A DNA stretch of 64,000 nt from positions 3,072,001 through 3,136,000 of the forward strand of contig OZ253564.1 of the NCBI GenBank assembly GCA_965262915.1, in the 5' to 3' direction. This DNA comes from Candidatus Spongiisociaceae bacterium (lineage in GTDB: Bacteria > Actinomycetota > Acidimicrobiia > Spongiisociales > Spongiisociaceae). Position 1 is the first letter of the stretch. Each line of letters begins with the position of its first letter. The position numbers were made by a program, and so were the translations under genes. Positions 32,518 to 50,846 of this stretch are shown piece after piece. The notes beneath the pieces were generated by a model. That model was not told the DNA's origin. It saw only the letters and a program-made list of their open reading frames with translations, and did not search any database.

Positions 32518-33744
32518 GTGGACGGATACCTGACGCGCCTCGTGGATCCCTGGATCGCGGAGCTACTCGCCTCGGCCCCTGCGGTGATGATCACAGGGGC
32601 GAGGGCCGCAGGTAAGACCACGACCGCGCTCCGGCACGCGTCGAGTGTCGTTCGGCTCGACAACGAGCAAGAAGCCGGCCCCTTCAGGGCGGACCCTGAT
32701 GCTGCATTACGAGACCGCCCCGAGCCGGTGCTGTTGGATGAGTGGCAGGAGTGTCCCGAGGTGCTCGGCGCCGTGAAGCGGGCAATCGACACCGAACGAC
32801 GGGCGGGCCGGTTCATTCTGACCGGTTCGGTCCACTCTGATACCGATCCGGCTCTGTGGCCGGGCGTCGGTCGGCTCATCAGAGTCACGATGCACCCGTT
32901 GGCTGTCCGCGAGCAACTCTCGTGTAGAGGGCGCCTGTTCCTCGACCGGCTCCTCACCGATGACCCGACGGAGCCGCCCGCGGACACTCCCGACTTGCGC
33001 GGATACGCCGAGATCGCCTTGCGGGGCGGATTCCCCGAGCCGGCCATCCACCTTCGAGGCCGGGTCCGCGACGGCTGGCTCGCCGCTTACGTCGAGCAAC
33101 TCACCCAGGGCTCACCGAGACCCGGCAGAGTACCCGACGCCGCCCGGCTCGGCGCCTTCTTGCGGGCTTATGCCCTGAACTCGGCGGGTGTCGTCAGCGA
33201 TACGACCCTCTATCAGGCCGCCGGAATCAACCGTCGTACCGCCATCGGCTACACGAAGCTGCTCACCGACCTCGGCGCCATCGCCGAACTCCCCGCATGG
33301 AGTAGCAACCGCATCAAGCGTCTAACCCGAGGACCGAAGCGATACATCGCCGACACGGGGCTGTGGGGAGCGGCCGTTGGAGCGGATCCCGCCTTGGTCA
33401 TGAGTGACGGACTCCTTCTGGGCCGTCTTATCGACACCTTCGTGACCAACCAACTGAGGGCCGAAGCCGCGGTCGATCCGAACCGGCCACACCTCCACCA
33501 CCTGCGGGATCGCGAAGGTCGGCACGAAGTGGATCTCATCGCTGACCTGGGAGCCCGAGGGCTGGTCGCGATCGAGGTCAAGGCCCACAGCGCGCCGTCG
33601 CTCAAAGCGGCTCGGCACCTCGTCTGGCTACGCGACCGGCTGGGCGACCAGTTCCTGGCAGGCGTTGTCCTGCACACGGGCCCGGAGCCCTTCCAACTTG
33701 CCGACCGGATCCGGGCTATCCCGATTAGCGCACTCTGGAACTGA
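32518..33744 (+). CDS. AAA_14-type ATPase with DUF4143 C-terminal domain
   Basis: GARAAGKTT, LLDEWQ, FILTGS, GGFP, KRYIADTG, HEVDLI...AIEVKA. Confidence 0.9.
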   Translation: MDGYLTRLVDPWIAELLASAPAVMITGARAAGKTTTALRHASSVVRLDNEQEAGPFRADPDAALRDRPEPVLLDEWQECPEVLGAVKRAIDTERRAGRFILTGSVHSDTDPALWPGVGRLIRVTMHPLAVREQLSCRGRLFLDRLLTDDPTEPPADTPDLRGYAEIALRGGFPEPAIHLRGRVRDGWLAAYVEQLTQGSPRPGRVPDAARLGAFLRAYALNSAGVVSDTTLYQAAGINRRTAIGYTKLLTDLGAIAELPAWSSNRIKRLTRGPKRYIADTGLWGAAVGADPALVMSDGLLLGRLIDTFVTNQLRAEAAVDPNRPHLHHLRDREGRHEVDLIADLGARGLVAIEVKAHSAPSLKAARHLVWLRDRLGDQFLAGVVLHTGPEPFQLADRIRAIPISALWN

Positions 33745-33864
33745 GTCAAACCCGCAGGACTGCAGGGTCGGCGTTACCCGCGGCTGCCCAGTCCCCCACT
33801 AACCTCGACAGCGCGATTGGAAAGAAGCCGGTCGGACCCGACAATCACATCACAGGAGTCTCTC

Positions 33865-35289
33865 ATTACCTCACACCCTCTCTACTGCGATCTGCTCGTT
33901 ACGGGCGGAGTGGTGGTCACTGTGGACGACCGGCGCCGGGTGATCGATCCGGGAGCGGTCGCCATTGCCGGAGAACGGATCGTCGCGGTCGGTAGCGCCG
34001 CCGACCTGGGCGGTTACCGGGCGAAGCGCGTCATCGATGCCAAGGGGAAGGCGGTACTCCCTGGCTTGATCGACACCCACCAGCATCTCTTCCAGTACCT
34101 GCTGCGGGGTCTGGGCGAGGGACTGGAGCTATGGCCGTGGCTGTCCGACTTCATGTGGCCGGTCACCACCACGATCTCCACTGACGAGGCCCGGATCGGA
34201 GCACAGATCGGAGCGGTGGAAGCGGCCCGCTCAGGAGTCACCACGGTTCTGGACAACCACTACGCACCCACCGATTTCGACTCGACGATGGCGGTGGCCG
34301 GCGCGATCGAGGAGGTCGGGATCAGGGGCGCGGTCGCGCGGGGCATGACCGGAGAGCTGACCGGGATGGCAGCCAAGCATGGCCTCGCCGGTGAGTTGTT
34401 CCGATACTCGAACCGCGAGGAGATCGAGATCAGCCGGGCGTGCATAGCGGCGCGACCGCCGACCAGCCGCGTGGGGGTCTGGCCGGCGCCGCTCAACATC
34501 ATCTATGTGGACCAGCGTCTGGTGGTGGAAGCAGTGGCTCTGGCCCGGGAGAAGGGCACCGGCTGGCACTCGCACTGTTCGGAAGCCTCCAACGATCCGG
34601 TCTTCTACCTCGAGGAATACGACCGCCGTCCGGTGGTATGGATGGCGGAGCAGGGTCTGCTGGGTCCCGAGACCACGCTGGCACACGGCATCTTCCTGGA
34701 CGATCAGGAGGTTGAACTGGTCGGGGACTCACGCACCGGCATCGCCTACTGCCCGATCTCGCACCAGTACATCGCGCTAGGCGTCATGCGCCTGCGCGAC
34801 CTGAGGAGCGCCGGGGCGACCGTGGGTCTGGGCCTCGACGGGGGCAGCGGCCACCGCTTGGACATGTTCGCCTGCATGAAGCAGGCGGTACTCCTGCAGC
34901 GTGTGCACTCGCAGAACCCCACCGAGTCGAACGGCGAGGAGGCCATCGAGCTCGCCACCCGCGTCGGCGCAGAGTACATGGGGATCGACGCCGGGGTCAT
35001 CGCGCCCGGAAAGCTGGCCGATCTGGTGATCGTCGATCAGTCCGGTCCGCACCATGCACCGCTCCACCGCACCGTCGCGTCCGTCGTCTACTCCACGAGC
35101 GCCGCCGACGTGACCCACACGATCGTCGGTGGAGAGGTGGTCTTCGAGGACGGCCACTGCACGAAGGTGGACGAGGCGGAGGTCATCGAGGAGGCGAACG
35201 GTCGGGCGGCCGATCTCGTCGTACGAGCCGGACTGGGCCCGCTCCTGGAACCGTGGCGGATGGGACCGGCACCCGGGGGGAGCCGGTGA
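33865..35289 (+). CDS. Atz/Trz (MTA/SAH deaminase-like) amidohydrolase, probable ATT start
   Basis: PGLIDTHQH, HSHCSE, AHG, GLDG, PGKLADL; AGGAG RBS 6 nt before ATT. Confidence 0.88.
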   Translation: MTSHPLYCDLLVTGGVVVTVDDRRRVIDPGAVAIAGERIVAVGSAADLGGYRAKRVIDAKGKAVLPGLIDTHQHLFQYLLRGLGEGLELWPWLSDFMWPVTTTISTDEARIGAQIGAVEAARSGVTTVLDNHYAPTDFDSTMAVAGAIEEVGIRGAVARGMTGELTGMAAKHGLAGELFRYSNREEIEISRACIAARPPTSRVGVWPAPLNIIYVDQRLVVEAVALAREKGTGWHSHCSEASNDPVFYLEEYDRRPVVWMAEQGLLGPETTLAHGIFLDDQEVELVGDSRTGIAYCPISHQYIALGVMRLRDLRSAGATVGLGLDGGSGHRLDMFACMKQAVLLQRVHSQNPTESNGEEAIELATRVGAEYMGIDAGVIAPGKLADLVIVDQSGPHHAPLHRTVASVVYSTSAADVTHTIVGGEVVFEDGHCTKVDEAEVIEEANGRAADLVVRAGLGPLLEPWRMGPAPGGSR

Positions 35290-35708
35290 GACCCCAACCG
35301 GACTCGGTCCGGATGGTGGCCGTCGTGGGGGCGGGCGTCATGGGCCACGCCATCGCCCGGGTCTTCGCGCAGGTCTGACCGTCCACCTGGTCGATCCGCC
35401 AGACCTGATTCCCGAGAGCCGCCGGAGCATGGGCCTCGACGGGTCGCTCTAGGAAAGTGCTGAGAAACCCCCGTTGGCTCGACGGTCGATGACAAAATGC
35501 CACGTCAGCGGACGACGGGCCAACCGATTCCCCGTTTTCCAGCATTCTCCTACCTGGCGGACCCGGTGGAGCGCGGCTACTTCGGTCCCGCGCGGGCGCC
35601 GGATTCTAGGACTACTGCGGCCGCGCGGAGGTGCTGCGCAAACGGGACCTGGCACACCCGGCGGTCGTCGACACTTTCGAGGCGGCCGATGCTCTCGACC
35701 CGGTGTGA
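35286..35708 (+). pseudogene. 3-hydroxyacyl-CoA dehydrogenase-family pseudogene with its middle replaced by a MITE
   Basis: N-part VAVVGAGVMGHAIARVFAQ/GLTVHLVD; C-part LADPVERGYFG/AGAGF*DYCGRAEVLRKRD; frameshifts and stops. Confidence 0.72.
35449..35553 (-). mobile_element. MITE family A
   Basis: Near reverse complement of 16787-16892; flanks are CTAG...CTAC. Confidence 0.82.
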
Positions 35709-35746
35709 GTTTCCCCAGCCATTCCCTCGGAATGTAAGGTGCGAGG

Positions 35747-36562
35747 GTGACTGCAGACACTCCCCTGCCCGCGGGCTCGCCATCCGGCCTCGCCCAGGCC
35801 ATAGAGATCGCAGGTGTTACCAAGCGGTTCACGATGTCGAGACGGCAGTTCCTGGTGGCGGTCGACGACATCGATCTCTCGGTGGCGCAGGGAGAGTTCG
35901 TTGCCATCATCGGTCCGTCCGGATGCGGCAAGTCGACCATCCTCCGGATGCTGGCCGGTCTGGAGAGGCCGACGGCGGGAACCGTGCAGCTCAACGGGGC
36001 GTCGCCCGCCGAGTTGGTGGCTGCCCACCGCCTCGGGGTTGCCTTCCAGGAGCACGCCCTCCTGCCATGGCTCTCCGCATGGGACAACATCGCCCTCCCG
36101 TTCCGGGTAATGGGCGCCAAGCCCGACGCCGACCGCATCTCCTCCCTCATCCGTCTGGTGGGGTTGAGCGGTTTCGAGAGGGCCCGACCCAAACAGCTGT
36201 CCGGCGGTATGCGGCAGCGGGTCGCCATAGCCAGAGCGTTGGCTCTCGAGCCCGAACTGCTGCTGCTGGACGAACCGTTCGGGGCGCTCGATGCGGTGAC
36301 GAGGCGCCGGATGAACCTGGAACTCCAATCCATCTGGGCGGAGCAGCGCATCACCTCCGTCCTCGTGACGCACTCCGTTGACGAAGCTATCTTCCTGGCC
36401 GACCGGGTCATCGTGCTCACCGAACGACCCGGCCGGATCAAAGTCATCGAGAAGGTCCCCTTCGGCCGGCCCCGGAGCCGGGAGTTGATGACCACCGAGG
36501 AGTTCCATTCCCTCGCTGACAAGCTGATGCTCGCCATCGACACCGGTGAGGGGACCGATTGA
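35747..36562 (+). CDS. ABC transporter ATP-binding protein (TauB/SsuB-like), no cognate permease adjacent
   Basis: GPSGCGKST, LSGGMRQR, LLLDEPFGALD, VTHSVDEA. Confidence 0.92.
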   Translation: MTADTPLPAGSPSGLAQAIEIAGVTKRFTMSRRQFLVAVDDIDLSVAQGEFVAIIGPSGCGKSTILRMLAGLERPTAGTVQLNGASPAELVAAHRLGVAFQEHALLPWLSAWDNIALPFRVMGAKPDADRISSLIRLVGLSGFERARPKQLSGGMRQRVAIARALALEPELLLLDEPFGALDAVTRRRMNLELQSIWAEQRITSVLVTHSVDEAIFLADRVIVLTERPGRIKVIEKVPFGRPRSRELMTTEEFHSLADKLMLAIDTGEGTD

Positions 36563-36841
36563 CGGGAGGAGCCCGGTGCGCCGTAGCCCGGTCCGGGCCT
36601 TCCTTCCGATGCCCGCAGGCCGTCTGGCCGGTCCGGTCATGGTCGGGGTGGCACTCAAGTAGGATCAAAGAGACCTGTGTCCTGCCGGCTCCTGCCGCGC
36701 CCGGACGGATCGTTCGACCGATCGATGCGACTGTTCGGCCGGTATGCGGGTAGGTTGCGGGACGGCAAGCGCTCCCGGTCGTTCTGCTCCCGGACAGGCC
36801 AGCTGCCCCCGATGCGGCGATATGACTCGAGAGGACTCCCC

Positions 36842-37807
36842 ATGACCGAGATCGAAGCGACTTGGGACTTTCGGGACCCGTACCTCTGGATGCAGAAGAC
36901 GGCCCGAAGTGCGCTGCCGCCCCTGATCATCACTGCCGCGATCAGCGGAGGCGGCCACGGTAAGGAGTCCAACCCGGCCCTCCCCGAAACCCCGGAGGAG
37001 CAGGCGGAGGAAGCGCGCAGGGCCTACGAAGCCGGCGCTTCACAGATCCATGTGCACGCCCGCGATCCGAACGACTGGAGCCAGTGCGCCGGCAACCCGG
37101 AGGACTACGGGCGGGTGAACCGGATGATCCGCGAGCAGTGCCCGGACGTGATCATCAACAACAGCACCGGAGGCGGTCCCACGTTGACCACCGAGGAGCG
37201 TTACTCACCCCTGTTCGCCGACCCGGCCCCCGATGTGGCAACGCTCAACCTCGGCCCGTTCGTCTCCAGGTTCACGATGCCCGAGCGCCCCGCCCATCTA
37301 CCCCACCCGCGCGGGCCTGTCGAGTACGACATGTGCAGCGGGACGACCTACGGCGAACTCAACCACTACGCGTCCGTAATCGCCGAGCGAGGAATGAAGC
37401 CCGAACTGGAGGTTTACGATCCGGGCCAGTACTGGGTGCTCCGAGACCTCATCTACAACCACAACGTCACACCGCCATACATGGTGCAGTTCGTCCTCGG
37501 CGCCCAGACCGCCTCGTTCCCGACCCCTGCCAACCTCACGTCGCTGATCAACGAGCTACCGGCCGGAGCTCTGTTCTCGGTGATCGGCACGGGCCCCTTC
37601 CAGATCCCTATGAACGTCCTCGGAATTCTCCTTGGAGGCCACGTTCGGGTGGGACTCGAGGACAACATCTACTACCGGAAAGGCGAGAAGGCGACCGGTA
37701 ACGCCCAGTTGGTGAGCCGCATCCGCCGTATCGCTGAGGAGATGAACCGCGAGATCGCCACCCCGGCCCAGGCACGCAGGATGCTGGGCCTTCCCCAGGT
37801 CGCATGA
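36842..37807 (+). CDS. Beta-keto acid cleavage enzyme (BKACE / Kce family)
   Basis: IITAAISG, NPALPETPEE, AGASQIHVHARD, NSTGG, KPELEVYD, GGHVRVGLEDN. Confidence 0.93.
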   Translation: MTEIEATWDFRDPYLWMQKTARSALPPLIITAAISGGGHGKESNPALPETPEEQAEEARRAYEAGASQIHVHARDPNDWSQCAGNPEDYGRVNRMIREQCPDVIINNSTGGGPTLTTEERYSPLFADPAPDVATLNLGPFVSRFTMPERPAHLPHPRGPVEYDMCSGTTYGELNHYASVIAERGMKPELEVYDPGQYWVLRDLIYNHNVTPPYMVQFVLGAQTASFPTPANLTSLINELPAGALFSVIGTGPFQIPMNVLGILLGGHVRVGLEDNIYYRKGEKATGNAQLVSRIRRIAEEMNREIATPAQARRMLGLPQVA

Positions 37808-37835
37808 CCTCGACCGAGACGGCCCGGGCGACTGA

Positions 37836-39173
37836 GTGAACAGCAGCAGCCCGCGCCGCCAGGTTCTCGATGTCGGATCGTTCGAGGTCCGCGAGGTGAA
37901 TGCAGGTTCGACAACGTCGTTGCGCGACGGAGTGCTCACCATCGACACCGACGACCTCGCTGGGAGACTGGTGGACGGGACGAACTTCGCTTCGGTCTCG
38001 GTGGACATCGTGCGGCCCGGCGACTCCGTGCGGGTCATCAACGCTATCGATGCCGTGGAACCTCGTATCAAGGTCGATCCCCCCGGCACTGACTTCTCCG
38101 GTCTGCTGACGGGTCCGCGGCAGGTGGGCCTGGGCACCACTCATGCGCTCAAGGGCGTGTCGGTGGTCGAGACCGCGCTCCCGGTTCCGGGCGAACCCGT
38201 CTACTGGCGGGAAGCGGTCTTCGACATGGCGGGAACGAGCGCGAAATACTCACCGTTCTCGGATCTGGCCAACGTGGTGGTGTCCTGCGAACCGACCAGG
38301 GACCTGCTGGAGAGCAGCGGACGCCCCACCAACCTGTTCGAAGGGACACCGGAGGCGGTCGAATACAACAGGGCCGTCCGCTTAGCGGGGCTCAAGGCTG
38401 CCAAGTACCTGGCCGCGACGACGCTCGGACAGACACCCGACCGGGTGGATACGTTCGATCTGGCACCGTTGCCGGACAGCGAACTACCGGCCGTGGTCTA
38501 CCTGTACCAACTCGCCATCCCCTACCTGCACGGGGAGATCGCACCGGGTGCCGGCGCTATAGGTGGAGCGGCGCACCTCCCCACCCCTATCCACCCCAAC
38601 GAGTTGCTGGACGGGGCCCTGGTGTGCGGATGGAACGCGATCGCCTGCATGCGGGAACTCACCTACACCGTCCAGAACCACGCCATCGTCAAGGATCTGT
38701 ACGCCCGCCACGGCAAGGAGATCGACTTCCGCGGGGTGGTGCTGTTCACCAACGGGGACTCGCGGGCCAGCAAGGAGCGCCTCGCCAACCACGCAGCCGG
38801 CCTGGCGATAATGATGGGCGCCGAGGGTGCGCTGATCAACTACGCCGGGGGCGGGCATCCCGCCGTCGACGCCATGATGATCTGTCGGAACCTCGAGAGG
38901 AGAGGCGTGACCACCACCATGCTGTCCATGGAGATGGCTGCCAATCCCGGAGAGTCGGGGTTCGTCCATTTCGTCCCCGAGGCGGACGCCATCGTGAGTA
39001 CCGGGAACTACGAGGAAACCGTGACGTTCGAGGCGGTCGACCGGGTGATCGGCGGCGATTCCCTCATCCGGATCGATGGTGATCCCGCCGGGGCGTTCGA
39101 CGCTCCGCTGGCCATCGTGCTGGCGAGCACCCACCAGTTCGGTCACACCCGTATAAGGGGAGAGGAGTACTGA
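37836..39173 (+). CDS. Glycine/sarcosine/betaine reductase component B proprotein-like subunit (GrdE/GrdI-like)
   Basis: VRPGDSVRV...DAVEPRIKV, G.THALKGVSV, HPNELLDGALV, QNH...LYARHGKEIDFRGV, GGGHP, EADAIVSTGN. Confidence 0.88.
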   Translation: MNSSSPRRQVLDVGSFEVREVNAGSTTSLRDGVLTIDTDDLAGRLVDGTNFASVSVDIVRPGDSVRVINAIDAVEPRIKVDPPGTDFSGLLTGPRQVGLGTTHALKGVSVVETALPVPGEPVYWREAVFDMAGTSAKYSPFSDLANVVVSCEPTRDLLESSGRPTNLFEGTPEAVEYNRAVRLAGLKAAKYLAATTLGQTPDRVDTFDLAPLPDSELPAVVYLYQLAIPYLHGEIAPGAGAIGGAAHLPTPIHPNELLDGALVCGWNAIACMRELTYTVQNHAIVKDLYARHGKEIDFRGVVLFTNGDSRASKERLANHAAGLAIMMGAEGALINYAGGGHPAVDAMMICRNLERRGVTTTMLSMEMAANPGESGFVHFVPEADAIVSTGNYEETVTFEAVDRVIGGDSLIRIDGDPAGAFDAPLAIVLASTHQFGHTRIRGEEY

Positions 39174-39182
39174 GAGGCGCCC

Positions 39183-40511
39183 ATGGCCGGCATAGTTCAC
39201 TATCTCAACCAGTTCTTCGGAGGTCTCGGCGGCGAGGACCGGGCCGGAATCGGACCTGTGAGCGAAGCGGGCCCGGTCGGTACGGGCAGGGGCCTGGTCC
39301 GGTTGCTGGAAGGAGGCAACCGGATCGTAGGAACTGTCATCTGCGGCGACAACTACATCGCCCAGGGCGGCGAGGCGGTGGTCGACGAGGTCCTTGATCT
39401 GATATCGGCCCACGACCCGGATGTGGTAGTGGCCGGACCGGCGTTCGGATCCGGACGGTACGGCCTGGCCTGCGGCGCGGTCTGCCGGGCGGTGATCGAA
39501 CGGCTGGGCATACCGGCGGTGACGGCCCTCCATGCCGACAGCCCCGGCGCCCACGAGTTCCGCCCTTGGGTACCCGTCATCCCCACCGCCCAGACCGCGG
39601 CGGGGATGGGCGCGGCCCTCCGCGAAATGGCCCGCCTGGCGAACAAGCTGGGCCGGGGCGAGGAACTGGGCGGCGCCCGGGAGGAGGGTATCCTCACCAA
39701 GGGCCTCCGGCGCAACATCTTCGAGGATAGGAGAGGTTCCACCCGGGCAATCGAGATGCTGCTCGCCAAGATGCGCGGCGAGCCGTTCGAGACCGAGTGG
39801 CCCCTGCCCCGCTACGAGCCCGCCGAACCCGCCGAGCCGTTGGCAAAGGGCCGACACTTCCGGCTGGCGCTGGTGACCGAAGCGGGAATAGTCCCGGCAG
39901 GCAACCCCGACCGGCTGCCTTCGGGATGGGCTAGCGACTGGCTGAAGTACCCGATCGAGGGCAGGGACGGTTTTGCAGAAGGCGAATTCGAGTCGGTGCA
40001 CGGCGGGATCGACACCAGTCTCGCCAACCGCGATCCCGACCGCCAGGTCCCTCTGGACGCCACCCGGTTGCTGGAGACCGACGGCCGCTTGAGCCTTCAC
40101 GATGAGCTGTTCACCACCACGGGCAACATGGGTTCGCTCCGGGACATGACCCGTATGGGCGCCGAGATGGCACGGGCGCTGGTGGCGGACGGGGTCCAGG
40201 CGGTGATCGTGGGGGCCACCTGAGGGACGGGTACGCGTAGCGGGTCTACGCTGGCGAAGTCGATCGAGAACCAGGGAATCCCGGCCGCGCTGGTCACGGC
40301 TCTGGTGCCCCTGGCCGAGTCGGTCGGCGTCCTCCGCATCGTGGCGGGCACGGCCGTCACGCATCCGTTCGGGGACCCTGAGTTGGAGACCGCCGACGAA
40401 CTCGATTACCGCAGGCGGGTGGTGGAAACGGCCATCGCAGCACTCGAGGCGACCGTGTCGGAACCCACGGTGTTCGAAGTCGGCCGCCCGGCGCCGGCCG
40501 CGGTGTCATGA
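39183..40511 (+). CDS. Selenocysteine-containing reductase component B subunit (GrdB/GrdF/GrdH-like), Sec at TGA 40221-40223
   Basis: VHYLNQFFGGLGGED, ICGDNY, AGPAFGSGRYGLACG and HGG.D; GrdB homology continues in frame past TGA (AT-U-GTGTRSG...GIP...RIV...HPFGDP); SECIS hairpin downstream. Confidence 0.88.
40235..40251 (+). promoter_or_regulatory. Bacterial SECIS-like hairpin
   Basis: GCGTAG-CGGGT-CTACGC, a perfect 6-bp stem with a G/GU-containing loop, starting 11 nt after the in-frame TGA. Confidence 0.75.
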
Positions 40512-40577
40512 GCTGTTTTGGTGGCCGCATCGGGCTCGCAGCCGACCCCGGAAGGGGGAAAGTGTGGTGCGCCCGGC

Positions 40578-40641
40578 CTCGGAGGGTGCTCTAAACGGTA
40601 GGGAGCAACGGCATTCCAGCCGTTCCTGTGCACCCTTCTAA
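40578..40641 (+). mobile_element. MITE family C, short derivative
   Basis: GGAGGGTGCTCTAAACGGTAGGGAGCAACGG...GCACCCTTC-TAA. Confidence 0.65.
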
Positions 40642-40666
40642 GGTGAGGCAGCCGAGAGGAGTGACG

Positions 40667-42139
40667 ATGGCTCGACGCCCGAACATACTGTTGCTCCAAG
40701 CCGATCAACTGGCCCCACACTTCCTGCCCGTATACGGCCATCCGGTCACCCTGGCGCCCAACCTCTCGGAGCTGGCCGGGAGCGGCGCCGTGTTCGACTC
40801 GGCCTACTGCAACTCTCCCCTCTGCGCTCCGTCCCGTTTCTCGATGATGACCGGGCAGATGCCGTCCGACATCGGCGCCTACGACAACGCCTCCCCCCTC
40901 TCCCCTGCCGTCCCCACCTTCGCCCACCACCTCCGGCGGGGTGGGTACCGGACGGTCCTGGCCGGGAAGATGCACTTCGTCGGACCCGATCAACTGCACG
41001 GCTTCGAGGAACGCCTCACCACCGACATCTACCCGGCCGACTTCGGGTGGACACCGGACTGGGACGACGCGGACCGAGATCCGGTCCGCTCCTACCTCCG
41101 CCAGGCGGCCCGTGACCTAAAGCGGGCCGGCGTATCGGGACCCACCCTGCAGATGCATTACGACGACGAGGTGACCCACCGGGCGGTCCGGTGGCTCCGA
41201 GGACCGGGCGACGGGGACAGGCCCTTTGCGCTGACCGTGTCCTTCATCCATCCACACGACCCGTTCAACATCACCCGAGCGTACTGGGACCGCTACCGGG
41301 GCCGTGCGATCGACGATCCGATCACCCCACCGGCGGCGACGGATGTGCCGCTCGACGAGCCTTCCCGGCAGCTGCGGGCGGCTCTCGACCTCGACGGCCT
41401 GGACCTGAGCGGCGCCGAGGTGCGCACCGCCCGCCGCGCCTACTACGCGGCCATCAGCTACCTGGACGACTGCATCGGTAAGGTCCTGGCCGCCCTCCGC
41501 GAGCGCGACCGTGGCCGGCCCACCGCGATCATCTTCGTGGCCGACCATGGAGAGATGCTGGGCGAGCGCGGGCTCTGGTTCAAGATGAGCTTCTTCGAGC
41601 GTTCGGCCCGGGTACCGATGATCATCACCGGTCCTGGCATAGCACCGACTCGAGTTGCTACGCCGGTATCCCTGATCGACCTCCTACCCACCCTCCTCGA
41701 CATCGCCGGCGTCGGTGCGGACAGCGCCGGTACCCCCGGAAGGAGCCTGGTCCCGCTGGCGTGTGGCGAACGGGAGACGAGCGCGCCGCCCGTCTTTGCC
41801 GAGATGCTTGGAGAAGGTGTGACGGACCCTGTGGTGATGGTCCGGGAGGACCGCTTCAAGTACATTTCCATCCCCCGAGCAGCTGCGGGCCTCTTCGACG
41901 TCGTCTCGGACCCCGAGGAGCTCTCGGATCTGGCCGGTGCCACCCGCTTCAGGGACGTGGCCGAGCGGCTGGCTGCTCGGGCAGGTGCACGCTGGGATCT
42001 CGCGAGGCTGAGGGCGGAGGTGGTGGCGAGCCAGAGGGACCGGAGATTGGTCCACCTAGCGCTGATCGCCGGCAAGCACACTCCGTGGGACTACTCGCCG
42101 GCGACCGAAGCGGCCGGCTCGTACATACGCAACGTCTGA
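40667..42139 (+). CDS. betC: Choline sulfatase-like sulfatase
   Basis: RPNILLLQADQL, YCNSPLCAPSR, GKMHFVGPDQLHGFEERLTTDIYPADFGWTPDW, DHGEMLGERGLWFKMSFFE. Confidence 0.88.
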   Translation: MARRPNILLLQADQLAPHFLPVYGHPVTLAPNLSELAGSGAVFDSAYCNSPLCAPSRFSMMTGQMPSDIGAYDNASPLSPAVPTFAHHLRRGGYRTVLAGKMHFVGPDQLHGFEERLTTDIYPADFGWTPDWDDADRDPVRSYLRQAARDLKRAGVSGPTLQMHYDDEVTHRAVRWLRGPGDGDRPFALTVSFIHPHDPFNITRAYWDRYRGRAIDDPITPPAATDVPLDEPSRQLRAALDLDGLDLSGAEVRTARRAYYAAISYLDDCIGKVLAALRERDRGRPTAIIFVADHGEMLGERGLWFKMSFFERSARVPMIITGPGIAPTRVATPVSLIDLLPTLLDIAGVGADSAGTPGRSLVPLACGERETSAPPVFAEMLGEGVTDPVVMVREDRFKYISIPRAAAGLFDVVSDPEELSDLAGATRFRDVAERLAARAGARWDLARLRAEVVASQRDRRLVHLALIAGKHTPWDYSPATEAAGSYIRNV

Positions 42140-42474: not shown

Positions 42475-43878
42475 TTACCGCCGCCACGGTACGAGCAGAC
42501 CGTGTAAGCCGGCTCGGTCGATCAGGTCATCGGCCCGGGCCTGCGCTTCGCTCATCACCGCCTCCTCGTCGACCATGGTGCAACGGCCGTTCTCCAGCAC
42601 GACGTTGCCGTCGATGATCGAATACGCCACATCCGATCCCCTGACACAGTAGGTAAGGGCGGAGACAGTCCTGTGCCACGGTGTGAGATGGGGACTGCGC
42701 ATGTCGACGACGATGATGTCGGCCAGCTTGCCGGGAGCGAGCACACCGGCGTCGATCCCCGCGTAGCGCGCTCCTTCTCTCGTGGCCATCTCCAATGCCT
42801 CTTCACCGTTGCTGATGGTCGGATCCAGGGTATGGACACGCTGGAGCAGGATGGACTGCTTCATCACCTCGAACATGTCCTGGCGGTGGTTGCAGCACGG
42901 ACCGTCGGTGCCGAGACCGATCGGCGCTCCGGAGGCGCGCAGGTCGCGCAAGCGCATGACGCCAAGGGCTATGTACTGGTGGGATATGGGGCAGTAGGCG
43001 ATCCCGGTCTCCGTCTCGCCCACGTGATCGATCTCGGTATCGTCGAGGTAGATCCCGTGAGCGATGGTCGCTTCCGACCCCAGGAGACCCTCCTGGTAGA
43101 GCCATTCGACCGGCCGGATGCCGTACTCCTCGAGATATGTGGGAGGGTCCTCGAGGCGCTCGGAGCAGTGCGTGTGCCACCCAACACCCGCCTCGCGGGC
43201 CAGGGCGACGCTCCGCCGGACCAGGTCCTGATCGTTGTAGATGATGTTGAGGGGCGCCGGCCACACCTCGACGCGGCCTCCGGCCGGGTACGACTCAATG
43301 GCCGTCGTAGTGATCTCGATCTCCTCGTCGTTGGAGTAGGAGAACAGCTCCCCGGCCAGGTTGGACCTCCGAGCGATGTCGGTCGCCTCCCCCGCGATTC
43401 CTCGGGCCACCGCTCCCCGCAGCCCCACCTCGCGGATGGCGCCGGCCACCGCCAGGGTCGTGTCGAGGTCGGACGGCGCGTAGTGGTGGTCGATGACAGT
43501 GGTGGTGCCCGCCTTGACAGCCTCCACCGCCCCCAGCTTGGCGCCGATCCGACCCTCGGCCAGGTTGATGGAGATCGAGTAGGGCCACATGAAGTCAGTC
43601 AGCCAGGTCCACAGCGGCATGCCCTCGCCCAACCCGCGCGCCAGACCCTGGAACAGGTGGTTGTGGGTGTCGATCAGTCCCGGCAGCACGGCGTGGCCGG
43701 TGCAGTCGATAGTGCGGCGTGCCCGGTAGCCGGCCAGGTCAGCGACCGGCCCGACCGCGACGATCCGGCTGCCCGTCACCGCCACGGCCCCCGGTTCGAT
43801 GACCCGGCGGTCGTCATCGACGGTCACCACTGACCCTCCGGTGAGCAGGATGTCGCAGTCCTGGCTTCTCTGGTTCAT
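42475..43878 (-). CDS. Atz/Trz amidohydrolase, close paralog of 33865-35289
   Basis: PGLIDTHNH, HTHCSE, GTDG; shares IAYCPISHQYIALGVMRLRDLR with the paralog. Confidence 0.92.
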   Translation of the reverse strand: MNQRSQDCDILLTGGSVVTVDDDRRVIEPGAVAVTGSRIVAVGPVADLAGYRARRTIDCTGHAVLPGLIDTHNHLFQGLARGLGEGMPLWTWLTDFMWPYSISINLAEGRIGAKLGAVEAVKAGTTTVIDHHYAPSDLDTTLAVAGAIREVGLRGAVARGIAGEATDIARRSNLAGELFSYSNDEEIEITTTAIESYPAGGRVEVWPAPLNIIYNDQDLVRRSVALAREAGVGWHTHCSERLEDPPTYLEEYGIRPVEWLYQEGLLGSEATIAHGIYLDDTEIDHVGETETGIAYCPISHQYIALGVMRLRDLRASGAPIGLGTDGPCCNHRQDMFEVMKQSILLQRVHTLDPTISNGEEALEMATREGARYAGIDAGVLAPGKLADIIVVDMRSPHLTPWHRTVSALTYCVRGSDVAYSIIDGNVVLENGRCTMVDEEAVMSEAQARADDLIDRAGLHGLLVPWRR

Positions 43879-43895
43879 CGGGCGGAACCTCCCTT

Positions 43896-44828
43896 TCATC
43901 CGGCGGCCGCGCCGTCCCGGTCGACTTCGGGGGCCGGGATCTTGAGCAGCCGACCGGCCGTACCCCCCATGATGGCTTCCAACTCCTCGGCGGTGAGTTC
44001 GGGCCCGCCAACCTGTTCGGCAACCCGGTTGACGCTCCGGAAGATGCCCGAAGCCACCCCACGGGAACCGGACTTGTGCTTGTCGTTGTTGTCCGACCCG
44101 TAGACCGCCCGATCCAGCGCGCCCAGGCTTCTCAATCTGCCGAGCACCCGGTACAGGTCACGGGGGTCCCCACCAGCGTAATAGGACAGGTCGGCGTAGA
44201 AGTTGGGATGGCGGGCCACGACCGCGATTCCTTCATCGACATAGGGAAAAGCCAGGTAGACGAGGACTTTGAGATCCCGGTAGCGAATGCCCAGTTCGTC
44301 GAGGAGCAGCGGCCGGGCGTGGTGCATGGGAGCGTTGATGATCGGTGTGAAGCCGGTGTGGGTGTGAATGGGGAGGTCGAGGTCGAGGCACTTCTCGTAG
44401 ACCGGCGCCAGCCTCGGGTCAGCAGGATCGTGGTGGTGGTAGGTGGGCAGTAGCTTCATCATGCGGAACCCGTACTCCCGGACGCAACGCTCGATCTCGT
44501 CGGTGGCCTCCCGCACGTCACGCAGCGGATCCACGCACACCACCCCATACAGACGGCCGGGGTGGGCAGCACACTGGGCCGCCGTGTAGTCGTTGGGTAC
44601 GTGCACCTCGTGCTCATCCGGGAACCGCGGATGGTAGGTGGTGCGGCGTAGGTCCGATCCGTGGGCCAGACCGACATCGATACCTGCCTGATCGAGCAGT
44701 TCCACCAGGGCTGCGCCGTCCGTCCACCGGTAGTCCCCGCCATAGGGCCGATACAACTCCTCCATCCACCAGACCGGTGCGTGGCGAGGGGTCTCGGTGA
44801 GGTAGAGGAGCACATCGACGGTAGGCAT
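43896..44828 (-). CDS. Amidohydrolase_2 family protein lacking the N-terminal HxH motif
   Basis: MPTVDVLLYL; HTHTG; YGSD; paralog of the adjacent gene. Confidence 0.85.
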   Translation of the reverse strand: MPTVDVLLYLTETPRHAPVWWMEELYRPYGGDYRWTDGAALVELLDQAGIDVGLAHGSDLRRTTYHPRFPDEHEVHVPNDYTAAQCAAHPGRLYGVVCVDPLRDVREATDEIERCVREYGFRMMKLLPTYHHHDPADPRLAPVYEKCLDLDLPIHTHTGFTPIINAPMHHARPLLLDELGIRYRDLKVLVYLAFPYVDEGIAVVARHPNFYADLSYYAGGDPRDLYRVLGRLRSLGALDRAVYGSDNNDKHKSGSRGVASGIFRSVNRVAEQVGGPELTAEELEAIMGGTAGRLLKIPAPEVDRDGAAAG

Positions 44829-44832
44829 CGGA

Positions 44833-45732
44833 TCAATCCATCCGGTACAGCCTGGCGGCGTTGCCGCCCACGATCGCGTCGATCTGCCCGGACGTGAAAG
44901 GCTCCCGGTCCGTACGCTGGGCCACATCGGCGAGTTCCTCCATAAGGTGGGTCCCGATCTGCTGGCCTCCCCCGGTCCGATCCTTGTCGTTGTTGTCCGA
45001 GCCGTAGACCACCCGGTCCAGAGCATCCAAGCCCCGGAGTTTGTCGAGGGCGTCGAAGAGGGGCTCCGGACCGGCCCCGACAAAATAGGCGATATCCGCG
45101 TAGAAGTTCGGATGCCGCGCCACCACCGCGATGCCCTCGTCAACGTACGGAAAGTTGATGTACGCGAGAACGCGCAGGTCGCGGTAGCGGATGCCGACCC
45201 GGTCGAGCGGTTCGGGGTGACCGTACCGGAGCGCCGCCGTGATGATCGGCGAGTACCCGGTGTTCACATGTGCCACGATGCCGAGTTCCAGGCAACTCTC
45301 GAGCATGGGCGCCACCGCCGGGTCGTCGATGTAGTAGTTCTGGTAGGTGGGTAAGAACTTCGACGACCTGAACCCGTATTCCTTCACGCAGCGACGCTGT
45401 TCGATCACCCCGGCTCTGACATCCCGCAGGGGATCGATGTTGGCCACACCGATCAGCCGATCGGGGAACCGGGCCACCTGGCGAGCGGTGTAGTCGTTGG
45501 TTACGAACAGGTTGCGCTGATCGGGGAAGCCGGGATGGTAGGTGGTGCGGCGGATGTCGGAGCCCTGGACCATCCCGATGTCTACCCCGGCCCGGTCGAG
45601 GATGCCCACGATCGCTTCGCCGTCGGTCCAGATGTAGTCGCCGCCGTAGGGCCGGTACAACTCTTCCATCCACCAGAGCGGAGCCTGCTCGGACGACTCG
45701 GTCAGATGGAGATGGCAATCGACCGTTATCAT
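44833..45732 (-). CDS. Amidohydrolase_2 family protein
   Basis: MITVDCHLHL; NDY...PDRLIG; HPNFYAD; YGSD. Confidence 0.88.
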   Translation of the reverse strand: MITVDCHLHLTESSEQAPLWWMEELYRPYGGDYIWTDGEAIVGILDRAGVDIGMVQGSDIRRTTYHPGFPDQRNLFVTNDYTARQVARFPDRLIGVANIDPLRDVRAGVIEQRRCVKEYGFRSSKFLPTYQNYYIDDPAVAPMLESCLELGIVAHVNTGYSPIITAALRYGHPEPLDRVGIRYRDLRVLAYINFPYVDEGIAVVARHPNFYADIAYFVGAGPEPLFDALDKLRGLDALDRVVYGSDNNDKDRTGGGQQIGTHLMEELADVAQRTDREPFTSGQIDAIVGGNAARLYRMD

Positions 45733-45825: not shown

Positions 45826-47049
45826 CTACGTATAACTGATGACTCCTTCCTCGGCCATATGTCTCAACTCAGCCTCCCCGTACCCTATCAAGCCTCCCAG
45901 GATCTCCTCGTTGTGCTGGCCGAGGGCAGGCCCGGTGGTCCGCACCTGTCCAGGAGTCGCCGACAGACGGCCGACCAGGTTCTGCATGCGCACAGGCCCG
46001 AGGACGGGGTCCTCGACGGTGGTGACGCTCTCGTTGTGGGCGAATTGCGGATCCTCGAAGATACCGGCGATATCCAGTATCGGGGCGATGGCCGCTCCGG
46101 CGGCCCCGAACGTGGCCACAACCTCGTCGGCATCCCTCTCCGCCACCCACGCTCCAATGACCTCGTCCAACTCGTCTTGGTGCTGGAGCCGTCCGGTGTG
46201 GTTGGCGAACCACTCCTGCTCGGCGAGTTCGGGATGCCCGACCAGGTCGACCGTCCGTTCAGCGGTCGACTGCGAGGAAGCCGACAGTCCCAACCAAACG
46301 CCATCTCTCGACAGGTACGCGTTGCGCGGCGCGGTGAATGGGGCCCGGTTGCCGCTCCGGCCCTGTGCGACTCCTAGCTGGTCGTACACACTGGCCTGCG
46401 GTCCCAGCAACCAGAAGATAGGTTCGTATATCGACAGGTCGATCATCTGCCCCACCCCGGCCTCCGCTTCCCTGGCCCGGAGAGCCGCCAGGGTCAGGAA
46501 GGCGCCGCTGATCCCGGCTATGCCGTCCGCCAAGGCGAACGGCGGCAGGGTCGGTGGCCCGTCCGGATACCCGTTCATATGGGCAAAACCCGACATCGAC
46601 TCGGCCAGAGTGCCGAAACCTGCACGCTCCCGGTACGGACCGGTCTGACCGAAGCCGGTCACCCGTACCATCACCAGCCGCGGGTTTATCTCGCGCAGGT
46701 CGTCCCAACCGAGGCCCCACCGCTCCATGGTCCCCGGACGGAAGTTCTCGACGAGGACATCGGCCCCCTCCACCAGCCGCAGCAACGCCCGTCGCCCGAG
46801 ATCGTGGGAGAGTTTGAGGGTTACGGCCCGTTTGTTGCGGTTGACCACCGCCCACCACAGCGAGACCCCGTCCTTCTCCCAGCCCAGGTTCCGGAGGCTG
46901 TCCCCGCCGGGATGCTCCACCTTGATGACATCGGCGCCGAAGTCCCCCAGCAGGGTGGCCACCATCGGCCCGGCGAACAGCGTGGCCGCATCGACGACCC
47001 TCAACCCCTCCAGGGGGCCTTTCACGTCGTTGTTGAGGTTCTCTTGCAT
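45826..47049 (-). CDS. Class III CoA-transferase (CaiB/BaiF)
   Basis: GPLEGLRVVD, LGDFGADVIKVE, NRNKR, ADVLVENFRPG, GFGQTGPY. Confidence 0.95.
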   Translation of the reverse strand: MQENLNNDVKGPLEGLRVVDAATLFAGPMVATLLGDFGADVIKVEHPGGDSLRNLGWEKDGVSLWWAVVNRNKRAVTLKLSHDLGRRALLRLVEGADVLVENFRPGTMERWGLGWDDLREINPRLVMVRVTGFGQTGPYRERAGFGTLAESMSGFAHMNGYPDGPPTLPPFALADGIAGISGAFLTLAALRAREAEAGVGQMIDLSIYEPIFWLLGPQASVYDQLGVAQGRSGNRAPFTAPRNAYLSRDGVWLGLSASSQSTAERTVDLVGHPELAEQEWFANHTGRLQHQDELDEVIGAWVAERDADEVVATFGAAGAAIAPILDIAGIFEDPQFAHNESVTTVEDPVLGPVRMQNLVGRLSATPGQVRTTGPALGQHNEEILGGLIGYGEAELRHMAEEGVISYT

Positions 47050-49606: not shown

Positions 49607-50846
49607 CTACTCGACGTCGTCGGTCAGAGTCCAGATCTGCTTCAGCGGGAGCTCGGTCTGGATCTCCTTCGGAAGACGGTCGTAGCTCTCGGTGATCTTG
49701 CGGATCAGATCGCCCGAGCTCCAGGTGCGAAGGTTGAACCATTGGTCCCGCGCCAGTCTTTGCGCACCCCGGTTGAAGCCGCTCCACGACACGAACAGCG
49801 CCTTATCGGCGCCGAAGTTCCTGGCGGCGTCTAAGCCTGAATCCACCGATGGGGAGCACGCAGCGGACATGGAGATATGGTGGAAATGCCTCCTGATCTG
49901 CGGCGATAGCTATTGGTAAGCATGGTTCGGTCCTGGGAAGAGGAGCAACTTCCTGTGAGTGGTGGATCCCGGAGATCGCCCTGGTCAGGATTGGTTTTCG
50001 GAACATGAATCGGTGGATTCAGGCTAAGAGGTTGCGCACCGTGGGCGCGTCCACGGCCATCTGTCCTGACTTGACCTGGACCGCGATCCTCGGCGCATTC
50101 AAACCGAGTGGCCCTGAGCCAGCCAGCATGTCGACCCCGCCGTCGGGACCGGCCGGGGACCGGTTGGTGATGTAGCCCTCCGCCCTGAGAATCGCCTCAA
50201 CCAATCTCTCCAGCCCATGTCCTTTGAACGTCCGGGCTATGTGGGCCGCGATGCGGTCGGTGGCCAGCTGCTCCATATCCACCGCGCCTTCCTCGTCGAT
50301 GGAGTCCGTGCCGTCCTCGTGAGACACGTCGTCCGAGTGACGGAGTTCTGGATCGCGCCCGGTCCGAGAGAACTCGGCCAGACGGGCGACGGCGTTGTTC
50401 CGCTTGGGCCTGAAGACTGTATGCAGGCCGCCCAACGTGTGGAGAAGATCTTGGCGGAGTGAACTTCGTGGTTGCTCAGTCCGTAGCCAGTCCACGGGGC
50501 GAACGTGACGGCAGCCGTCAGGGTTGTCAGGCCGGAACTCGTATCCGCCCGCGTAACGTCCTACTGCCAGGGTCCTCGTCCTCTTGGCGGGCAGCACCAC
50601 CAGATCGCCGGTGTCGATCTCATGGACGAAGCGGAAGATCTGCCCGGCGTGGTTCGCCAGCCTGTTTCCCTCGGCGTAGCCGGTAGCTGTGAGCATCTCG
50701 CGGACCTGATCGCGTGTCGTGACGGCCGACAAGTCCCCCAGGTCATCCCAATCGATAACGACTACGCCCTTCTCCAAGGCGAAGTCCTCATACTCACCGT
50801 CCTTGCCGGCGCGGACCACCCATGCTCTCATCGTTCGAGCCTCCAT
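49607..50846 (-). pseudogene. Mrr-like restriction endonuclease interrupted by a 188-bp MITE
   Basis: AWVVRAG..., DGGVD...VQVKS; the C-terminal part FGADKALFVSWSGF...LPLKQIW lies beyond the insertion. Removing the element plus one TSD restores the frame (VRNLLDAARNF). Confidence 0.9.
49836..50023. mobile_element. 188-bp MITE, perfect 15-bp TIR CCTGAATCCACCGAT, 5-bp TSD CTAAG (IS1380-like ends)
   Basis: CTAAG|CCTGAATCCACCGAT...ATCGGTGGATTCAGG|CTAAG. It can alternatively be parsed as a 16-bp TIR with a TAA TSD. Confidence 0.9.

Follow-up and report, generated by a model that had tools for sequence, protein, structure and literature searches.

The selenoenzymes of the glycine reductase (Grd) type that are named in NCBIfam or in the papers cited here are specific for one of four compounds, namely glycine, sarcosine, betaine, or fluoroacetate; a separate, related reductase serves D-proline. 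In canonical protein C the acetyl thioester is carried by GrdD, and in Peptoclostridium acidaminophilum the protein-B genes are found apart from grdA and grdCD. The present paper deals with a GrdE- and a GrdB-family gene, here called GrdE' and GrdB', which follow a gene for a β-keto acid cleavage enzyme (BKACE) in the genome of a Candidatus Spongiisociaceae bacterium. The stretch analyzed comprises 64,000 nucleotides (assembly GCA_965262915.1, contig OZ253564.1, positions 3,072,001 to 3,136,000) and is referred to as the window. The three genes, below called the module, are probably, although by no means certainly, the substrate-specific front end (protein B and a feeder enzyme) of a selenoenzyme system of the glycine/betaine-reductase type.

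Described Systems

The Stickland glycine reductase GrdE/GrdB shares with the module both protein families, the position of the selenocysteine (Sec), and the partners GrdA and GrdC. The module differs from it in having no CxxC after Sec, no equivalent of Cys242, no detected GrdD, and a GrdB' that does not match the GrdB and GrdF motifs. Betaine reductase GrdH/GrdI is similar to the module in combining a Sec-containing GrdB-family protein with a GrdE-family subunit from which the Asn-Cys site is missing, and in operating via GrdA and protein C. However, confirmed GrdH proteins keep the UxxCxxC motif that is absent from GrdB', GrdB' falls outside the clade containing GrdH, and no BKACE was found beside the single GrdH/GrdI locus looked at (L142).

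Excerpts of the report on the fluoroacetate reductase of Cloacibacillus porcorum state that FarB has no CxxC after Sec, that FarE, "similar to grdI," has neither of the two processing cysteines and is no proprotein, and that FarE and FarB still make use of GrdA and protein C as shared components (PMC10838667). The module differs from this system in host, gene context, and its partner BKACE, and GrdE' scores far below the cut-off of the FarE equivalog (NF053623; 145.9 against 675 bits).

The dehydrocarnitine cleavage enzyme and Kce resemble the BKACE of the module in their full-length PF05853 match and in having a 3-hydroxyacyl-CoA dehydrogenase (HCDH) as partner, which for the module is seen in distant clusters and as a remnant in the window; in contrast to them, the module enzyme stays below the Kce cut-off and lies in a Grd gene set. 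Carnitine dehydrogenase and a BKACE make up the established route by which carnitine is converted via dehydrocarnitine to betainyl-CoA (PMC12482172, PMC9321204). Neither a BKACE in a selenoprotein or glycine reductase context nor a GrdD-less system was found in the literature, supplements (including the GrdBE tree of PMC9751293) being outside the scope of the search. New here are a Grd branch with a signature of its own (no CxxC, no canonical processing cysteine, a nine-residue insert in GrdE'), with a feeder enzyme of its own, and with no GrdD in its back end.

Conservation of the Module

BKACE, GrdE', and the Sec-containing GrdB' form one conserved unit. The family of the source organism was represented by 29 genomes, the window genome (G000) included, and 19 of these have a GrdB' ortholog. 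The order BKACE-GrdE'-GrdB' is kept in all 18 orthologous family loci, where the BKACE orthologs are 82-94% identical, and it is found again in distant lineages, so the linkage to BKACE that the earlier note had claimed extends well beyond this genome. The locus L137, from a record titled as a Planctomycetaceae metagenome-assembled genome, encodes in one run a BKACE (72% identical), GrdE' (56%), GrdB' (44%), GrdC (582 bits), and GrdA. A metagenome scan using GrdE' gave 14 contigs, and BKACE is situated upstream of GrdE' in each of the 12 that reach upstream; the GrdE' motif WNAIACM was among the scan patterns and is present in these contigs by construction. GrdC, and then GrdA where the contig continues, directly follows GrdB' in eight of the nine non-family contigs that extend at least 1.1 kb downstream.

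A general contig scan gave, among the matches listed, mostly Firmicutes glycine reductases, with a BKACE at 2 and GrdD at 51 of 80 loci. The hosts of the module belong to an actinobacterial family and a planctomycete-labelled lineage and are not classical amino-acid fermenters. That the host is an actinobacterium, as had been proposed from the window, is borne out by four WhiB genes; among 14 control genomes only Corynebacterium matches.

The GrdE'/GrdB' Branch

GrdB' passes the subfamily model TIGR01918 (427.5 bits, cut-off 65) and no other. It stays below the equivalog cut-offs for glycine GrdB (TIGR01917; 407.8 against 602), sarcosine GrdF (NF040794; 425.1 against 800), and betaine GrdH (NF040795; 382.3 against 775), while control sequences (L107, L133/L146, and the second L142 pair), which come from C. 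difficile, from two loci of the Lachnospiraceae type, and from an Alkaliphilus locus, each pass the respective model. GrdB' also lacks the glycine-GrdB and GrdF regular-expression motifs excerpted from Nobu et al. (2022; PMC9751293); L107 and L090 pass this GrdB motif, and L133 and L146 the GrdF motif.

The phylogeny was calculated by maximum likelihood from 105 rows, leaving out L048, L067, L078, L121, and L122 as partial or duplicate records and L088 due to a run of X. The 19 family GrdB' proteins form a single clade (SH-aLRT 100), which groups with sequences from Dehalococcoidia-titled records (support 84) and with the long-branched L137 (support 87). Every confirmed GrdB, GrdF, and GrdH is found in a separate clade of 64 rows (support 99), all of which have U-x-x-C-x-x-C. 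The GrdB' clade and L137 instead have U-G-T-G-T-R-S-G-S, with no cysteine following Sec, and do not pass the UxxCxxC test. When all 110 sequences are considered, 66 have both cysteines, 14 have one, and 29 have none, while the partial L048 is without the U.

In the alignment GrdE' displays W-N at the position of Asn241-Cys242 of C. difficile GrdE, so the canonical self-cleavage and pyruvoyl site is absent. The aligned GrdG retains Asn-Cys, and the GrdI beside confirmed GrdH does not. The nine-residue insert is shared by GrdE' of the family and of L137 and is absent from the 13 remaining GrdE sequences of the alignment. A sequence search against solved structures gave no match for GrdB' or GrdE'. 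Judged from models, tree, and alignments, the pair is a further conserved branch outside the characterized GrdB/GrdF/GrdH clade, and the Sec-GrdB/GrdE pair of the earlier note is real and divergent. The loss of both the CxxC and the processing cysteine has precedents in FarEB and GrdI, which suggests that no Schiff base is required for the substrate. By analogy, this fits a substrate whose α-carbon bears a good leaving group, for instance a betaine-type compound.

Selenocysteine in GrdB'

When its in-frame TGA is read as Sec, the GrdB' frame runs on to a second TGA at 40509-40511. The first TGA is kept in all 18 family orthologs (76-81% identical), and the Sec is situated at the conserved (S/A)T-U-G position in an alignment with confirmed GrdB, GrdF, and GrdH. 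The 20-nucleotide stretch 40233-40252, which holds the hairpin of the Sec insertion sequence (SECIS), is identical in 18 of the 19 orthologs. Six successive SECIS codons display no synonymous change at all, while 13 of 14 flanking codons are variable. The SECIS was judged from this invariance because folding energy alone is not significant; energy was dropped as evidence when the 71-nucleotide fold turned out to be no better than shuffled sequences (z 0.65). Outside the window the genome encodes selA, selB, selD, and tRNA-Sec, which settles the sel part of the whole-genome check that the earlier note had proposed. The UGA of GrdB' is evidently decoded as Sec.

The selD gene (G000:C1:4560939-4561865, minus strand) contains an in-frame TGA itself and would encode a Sec-containing selenophosphate synthetase. 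Three weak thioredoxin-fold matches with one TGA per frame (G000:C1:2053539-2053676, 750044-750193, and 751385-751537) may represent further selenoproteins.

The intact reading frames also bear on whether the locus is still functional. A pseudogene and an orphan ABC ATPase immediately upstream, together with the frameshift in the genome's other GrdB (the one beside GrdC), could be taken as signs of a decaying remnant that is non-functional in this genome. Since the frames of BKACE, GrdE', and GrdB' are intact and 76-94% identical to their orthologs, and both the Sec codon and the SECIS are preserved, we find this scarcely credible.

GrdA and GrdC

No grdA, grdC, grdD, thioredoxin, or sel gene is found in the 64-kb window, as had been noted earlier; the single GrdA, the single GrdC, and every thioredoxin match lie outside it. 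From its gene content the module is not self-sufficient, as the genes for its putative partners, a Sec-containing GrdA and a GrdC, lie at another site, around 368 kb away. GrdA (C1:3478236-3478676, minus strand) scores 189.9 bits and contains one TGA, and GrdC, at 589 bits, clears its cut-off of 450. They are found in a cluster with GrdE and a frameshifted GrdB, and in this genome an aspartyl-protease-like open reading frame (ORF) and an opposite-strand radical-SAM gene stand between GrdC and GrdA. The GrdB beside GrdC (L007:13654-14963, minus strand, equal to G000:C1 ~3481650-3482960) has one frameshift near ...ILTEGG/LVPEGN..., which points to a pseudogene or to an error of assembly. A third GrdE/Sec-GrdB pair (L008:8466-11095, plus strand, equal to G000:C1 ~2786465-2789094) has the GrdB motif UGTGTRCGA and is 44% identical to GrdB'. 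It is found about 130 nucleotides upstream of the gene for a 430-residue protein that matches Ribonuc_L-PSP (RidA type). The GrdE of this third pair likewise lacks the processing cysteines, and orthologs of the pair occur in several related genomes.

GrdA with its TGA, and GrdC above its cut-off, are carried by all 19 genomes that have the module. The 10 family genomes without GrdB' comprise seven that lack both GrdA and GrdC, one that has both plus a paralogous GrdB, and two that have fragments only. Thirteen of the 19 module genomes gave no GrdB other than GrdB' at E≤1e-30, in a search that easily picked up paralogs of 40-46% identity. In these 13 genomes GrdB' is the one protein B that GrdC and GrdA could serve. 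In most family genomes 12 kb to 1.2 Mb separate the module from GrdC-GrdA, and in two (G005 and G006) the GrdC-GrdA pair divergently adjoins BKACE about 1 kb away.

The earlier note had described the module as stand-alone, with an unknown route for discharging the Se-alkyl intermediate. The former is true of the window only, and for the latter GrdA and GrdC are at hand in this and every other module genome, and directly behind GrdB' in L137 and in most of the non-family contigs that reach far enough. Discharge by an internal thiol has been proposed for D-proline reductase. A self-contained module, in which the selenoether is discharged without GrdA and GrdC by, for example, such a thiol, would agree with the window having no grdA, grdC, or trx and with the long distances in most family genomes. 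It is nevertheless very improbable: GrdA and GrdC accompany the module in every genome that has it and are contiguous with it in other lineages, GrdC-GrdA are left without another GrdB partner in 13 genomes, and the loss of both Sec-adjacent cysteines means that GrdB' has no nearby resolving thiol.

Absence of GrdD

In the window genome the best GrdD score is 22 bits, and in none of the 29 family genomes does it exceed 32 bits, against an NCBIfam cut-off of 350. GrdD of C. difficile, which itself scores 602 bits on this model, gave no match when used as tblastn query against the window genome, and nothing in the 14 metagenome contigs. Nor did L137, or the loci with GrdE-GrdB-GrdC-GrdA from records titled Dehalococcoidia, Thermodesulfobacteriota, Deltaproteobacteria, and Desulfobulbus, give a GrdD match above the length filter. 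The gene order GrdE-GrdB-GrdC-GrdA without a flanking GrdD was seen in L068, L090, L115, L116, L134, L135, and L137. That BKACE is a general replacement for GrdD is ruled out by the loci of these four titles, which lack BKACE as well as GrdD. The earlier note had named a canonical grdA/grdCD set elsewhere in the genome, with proteins inside the GrdH/GrdI clades, as the finding that would overturn its proposal; grdA and grdC were indeed found elsewhere, while grdD was not, and the proteins fall outside the GrdH/GrdI clade.

The Grd-Linked BKACE

The BKACE of the module matches PF05853 over its full length (profile positions 1-274), and its likely start (MTEIEATWDF) is the same as in the orthologs. 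It does not pass the Kce equivalog (242.3 against a cut-off of 382), and the search against solved structures gave Kce and unnamed DUF849 entries only. It represents type 2 and is 34.5% identical to the other BKACE of the genome, type 1. Among the 29 family genomes type 2 is confined to those with the module and one fragmentary genome, while type 1 is found in 25, whether Grd genes are present or not. The type 1 gene adjoins an HCDH gene fused to a 4HBT_2 thioesterase (L147:3257-4741 and G000:C1:1860828-1861721, both minus strand), and by their domains these two would be the expected carnitine dehydrogenase/dehydrocarnitine-cleavage pair. Because the expected carnitine route would already be provided in this way, the Grd-linked BKACE probably takes a different 3-keto acid.

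Proposed Function

If the module is the front end of a glycine/betaine-reductase-type system, the BKACE would use acetyl-CoA to split a 3-keto acid made by an HCDH into acetoacetate and X-CH2-CO-CoA, comparable to the formation of betainyl-CoA from dehydrocarnitine. The Sec of GrdB' would then attack the α-carbon of the X-CH2-CO unit, either as CoA ester or as free acid, and displace X, for which a tri- or dimethylammonium group is the likeliest candidate. A pyruvoyl Schiff base would not be needed, since GrdE' has no canonical processing cysteine. The Se-carboxymethyl group would be passed on to GrdA, and GrdC would free the acetyl unit, which could return to the BKACE step as acetyl-CoA. Thioredoxin would supply the electrons. 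What is said here of the substrate, of GrdE' processing, and of the part played by the amidohydrolases is inferred. The betaine-type substrate of the earlier note is still plausible, given that GrdE', like GrdI, lacks the canonical processing cysteine and that GcvT-like genes, a Rieske oxygenase with its reductase, HCDH, and sulfatase recur nearby.

Some observations weigh against this proposal. The back end is not canonical, GrdD being found in none of the 29 family genomes, and the substrate of the Grd-linked BKACE is probably not the 3-keto acid of the dehydrocarnitine route. An invariant cysteine of GrdE' is found at the second canonical cysteine (the equivalent of 246), making processing at another site possible. 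One metagenome contig, L158, continues for 1.1 kb past GrdB' without a GrdC match; the genes of this contig are frameshifted. Lastly, the TRZ/ATZ deaminase-like and Amidohydro_2 genes, the adenosine-deaminase equivalog, and the Bmp-type binding protein described below point to N-heterocycles and not to simple betaines.

A more far-reaching version, which we regard as unlikely, is that the CoA thioester made by BKACE, betainyl-CoA or a close analogue, is itself the substrate of GrdE'B', and that GrdA and GrdC release acetyl-CoA, not acetyl-phosphate. With such a substrate GrdD would be unnecessary, and acetyl-CoA would cycle catalytically between BKACE and the reductase. If this is true, the NADH from the HCDH step would pay for the reduction, and a carnitine-like 3-hydroxy-4-ammonio acid would be converted to acetoacetate and free amine in a redox-neutral and O2-free manner. 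This would be a new selenium-dependent release of amines outside the Stickland fermenters.

Should the substrate of the proposed front end be a carnitine- or betaine-like osmolyte, the module would be an unrecognized source of methylamines, and it would give a handle on how protein C works without GrdD. Its five-gene operon form is a compact gene set to express and assay.

Neighboring Genes in Relatives and the Substrate Class

In the 18 family loci an Amidohydro_2 gene is always found near the module, and 15 have a TRZ/ATZ amidohydrolase, of the upstream type (AmhA, upstream of BKACE) in 11 and of the downstream type (AmhB) in six, with both types in two. The ABC ATPase is seen in six loci and the family III CoA-transferase in four. 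A choline sulfatase is found at the position it has in the window in three only, so the sulfatase linkage that the earlier note had emphasized is weak. Further neighbors in relatives encode an NMT1/THI5-type binding protein, a permease, a GcvT-like protein, enoyl-CoA hydratase, glyoxalase, and an ABM monooxygenase.

The clusters of the L137 type begin with a divergent HCDH gene, after which genes for a Bmp+NMT1 binding protein, an ATPase, and a GcvT-like protein precede two Amidohydro_2 genes directly upstream of BKACE. Behind the run from BKACE to GrdA come genes for a Rieske oxygenase, for an adenosine deaminase that passes its equivalog model (258 bits, cut-off 217), for a protein with VanA_C only, for a Rieske-FNR-ferredoxin reductase, and for a glutathione S-transferase (GST). 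A convergent sulfatase, 41-43% identical to the choline sulfatase of the window, closes two distant contigs. The set of Rieske/VanA_C oxygenase, Rieske-less VanA_C protein, Rieske-FNR-ferredoxin reductase, and GST behind GrdA was seen in L137 (13409-18899) and in L154, L157, and L159-L161. Presumably it resembles the caffeine N-demethylase NdmABCDE; the search against NCBIfam gave no matching model.

These neighbors raise the question of whether the same machinery serves another class of substrate (N-heterocycles, methylated purine-like compounds, haloacetates, or sulfonioacetates), such that Grd' reduces a fragment released by the amidohydrolases and not a betaine. The most constant neighbors are in fact two TRZ/ATZ deaminase-like genes and the Amidohydro_2 genes, relatives encode NMT1/THI5-type binding proteins, and the distant clusters add the Bmp+NMT1 fusion, the adenosine-deaminase equivalog, the VanA_C-only protein, the Rieske-FNR-Fer2 reductase, and the GST. 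FarEB demonstrates, in the excerpts cited, that the leaving group need not be an amine (PMC10838667). The BKACE, however, would have no clear role there, the choline sulfatase, GcvT-like gene, and HCDH suit the catabolism of quaternary amines better, and only the adenosine deaminase among these neighbors exceeds an equivalog cut-off. Another substrate class for the same machinery is therefore doubtful, though an alternative to be taken seriously.

Gene Order in the Window

The features of the window are listed in Table 1. Gene calls in the high-GC loci were made by a third-position GC heuristic, with approximate starts, and the Amidohydro_2 proteins and several neighbors were named from Pfam only. 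The co-oriented run from HCDH pseudogene to betC-like gene described in the earlier note was recovered using Pfam, NCBIfam, tblastn, and frame translation.

Table 1. Module, Sec elements, and flanking genes, in window coordinates.
Feature	Position	Strand	Evidence or remark
TRZ/ATZ-type Amidohydro_1 deaminase-like gene (AmhA)	33817-35289	+	Pfam Amidohydro_1, 173 bits
HCDH remnant	~35316-35705	+	N- and C-terminal ends only; frameshift and stop
Orphan NitT/TauT-type ABC ATPase paralog	35747-36562	+	Pfam ABC_tran, 124 bits
BKACE, Grd-linked type 2	36842-37807 (ORF open from 36677)	+	PF05853, 277.7 bits
GrdE-family subunit (GrdE')	37836-39173	+	PF09338 Gly_reductase/GrdE, 324.7 bits
GrdB-family selenoprotein (GrdB'), 442 amino acids, Sec347 (U347)	39183-40511	+	PF07355 GRDB, 391.8 bits (39183-40223)
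UGA Sec codon of GrdB'	40221-40223	+	Aligned with Sec of confirmed GrdB, GrdF, GrdH
SECIS hairpin	40235-40251	+	6-bp stem GCGUAG/CUACGC, loop CGGGU, begins 11 nucleotides past UGA
Choline sulfatase (BetC type)	40628-42139	+	Pfam Sulfatase and Choline_sulf_C; TIGR03417
Second TRZ/ATZ-type amidohydrolase (AmhB)	42475-43899	-	Convergent with module
Amidohydro_2 gene pair	43896 to ~44870 and 44833-45732 (43896-45732)	-	Pfam
Family III CoA-transferase	45826-47049	-	PF02515, 400 bits

The HCDH pseudogene is real but small, only its two ends being left. With the HCDH of L137 as tblastn query, residues 15-33 matched with 79% identity over 19 amino acids (E 2e-4 against the whole window) and residues 282-320 with 38% identity over 39 amino acids including an internal stop, and the Rossmann motif is discernible in the frame translation. 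The remnant was invisible to Pfam 3HCDH_N in the window scan, the genome's own HCDH-thioesterase as tblastn query gave only noise over this region, and the L137 query revealed no such remnant in the other 18 family loci. The ABC ATPase of the window is 69% identical to that of the transporter seen near the module in relatives; the complete set of ATPase, substrate-binding protein, and permease of this genome lies at C1:3271530-3275422, around 160 kb from it. The choline sulfatase passes its equivalog (587.7 bits, cut-off 433). For AmhA the top NCBIfam matches are 5'-deoxyadenosine, 8-oxoguanine, and related deaminases, every score being below its cut-off.

Upstream of AmhA an AAA_14/DUF4143 ATPase gene is found (32518-33744, plus strand). 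In a related genome a similar gene (L049:11074-12222) fills the slot after GrdB', which is held by the sulfatase in the window, and the content of this slot appears to be variable. A gene with an Mrr_cat restriction-endonuclease domain (50019-50846, minus strand) adjoins a pyruvate dehydrogenase E1 gene and is unrelated to the module.

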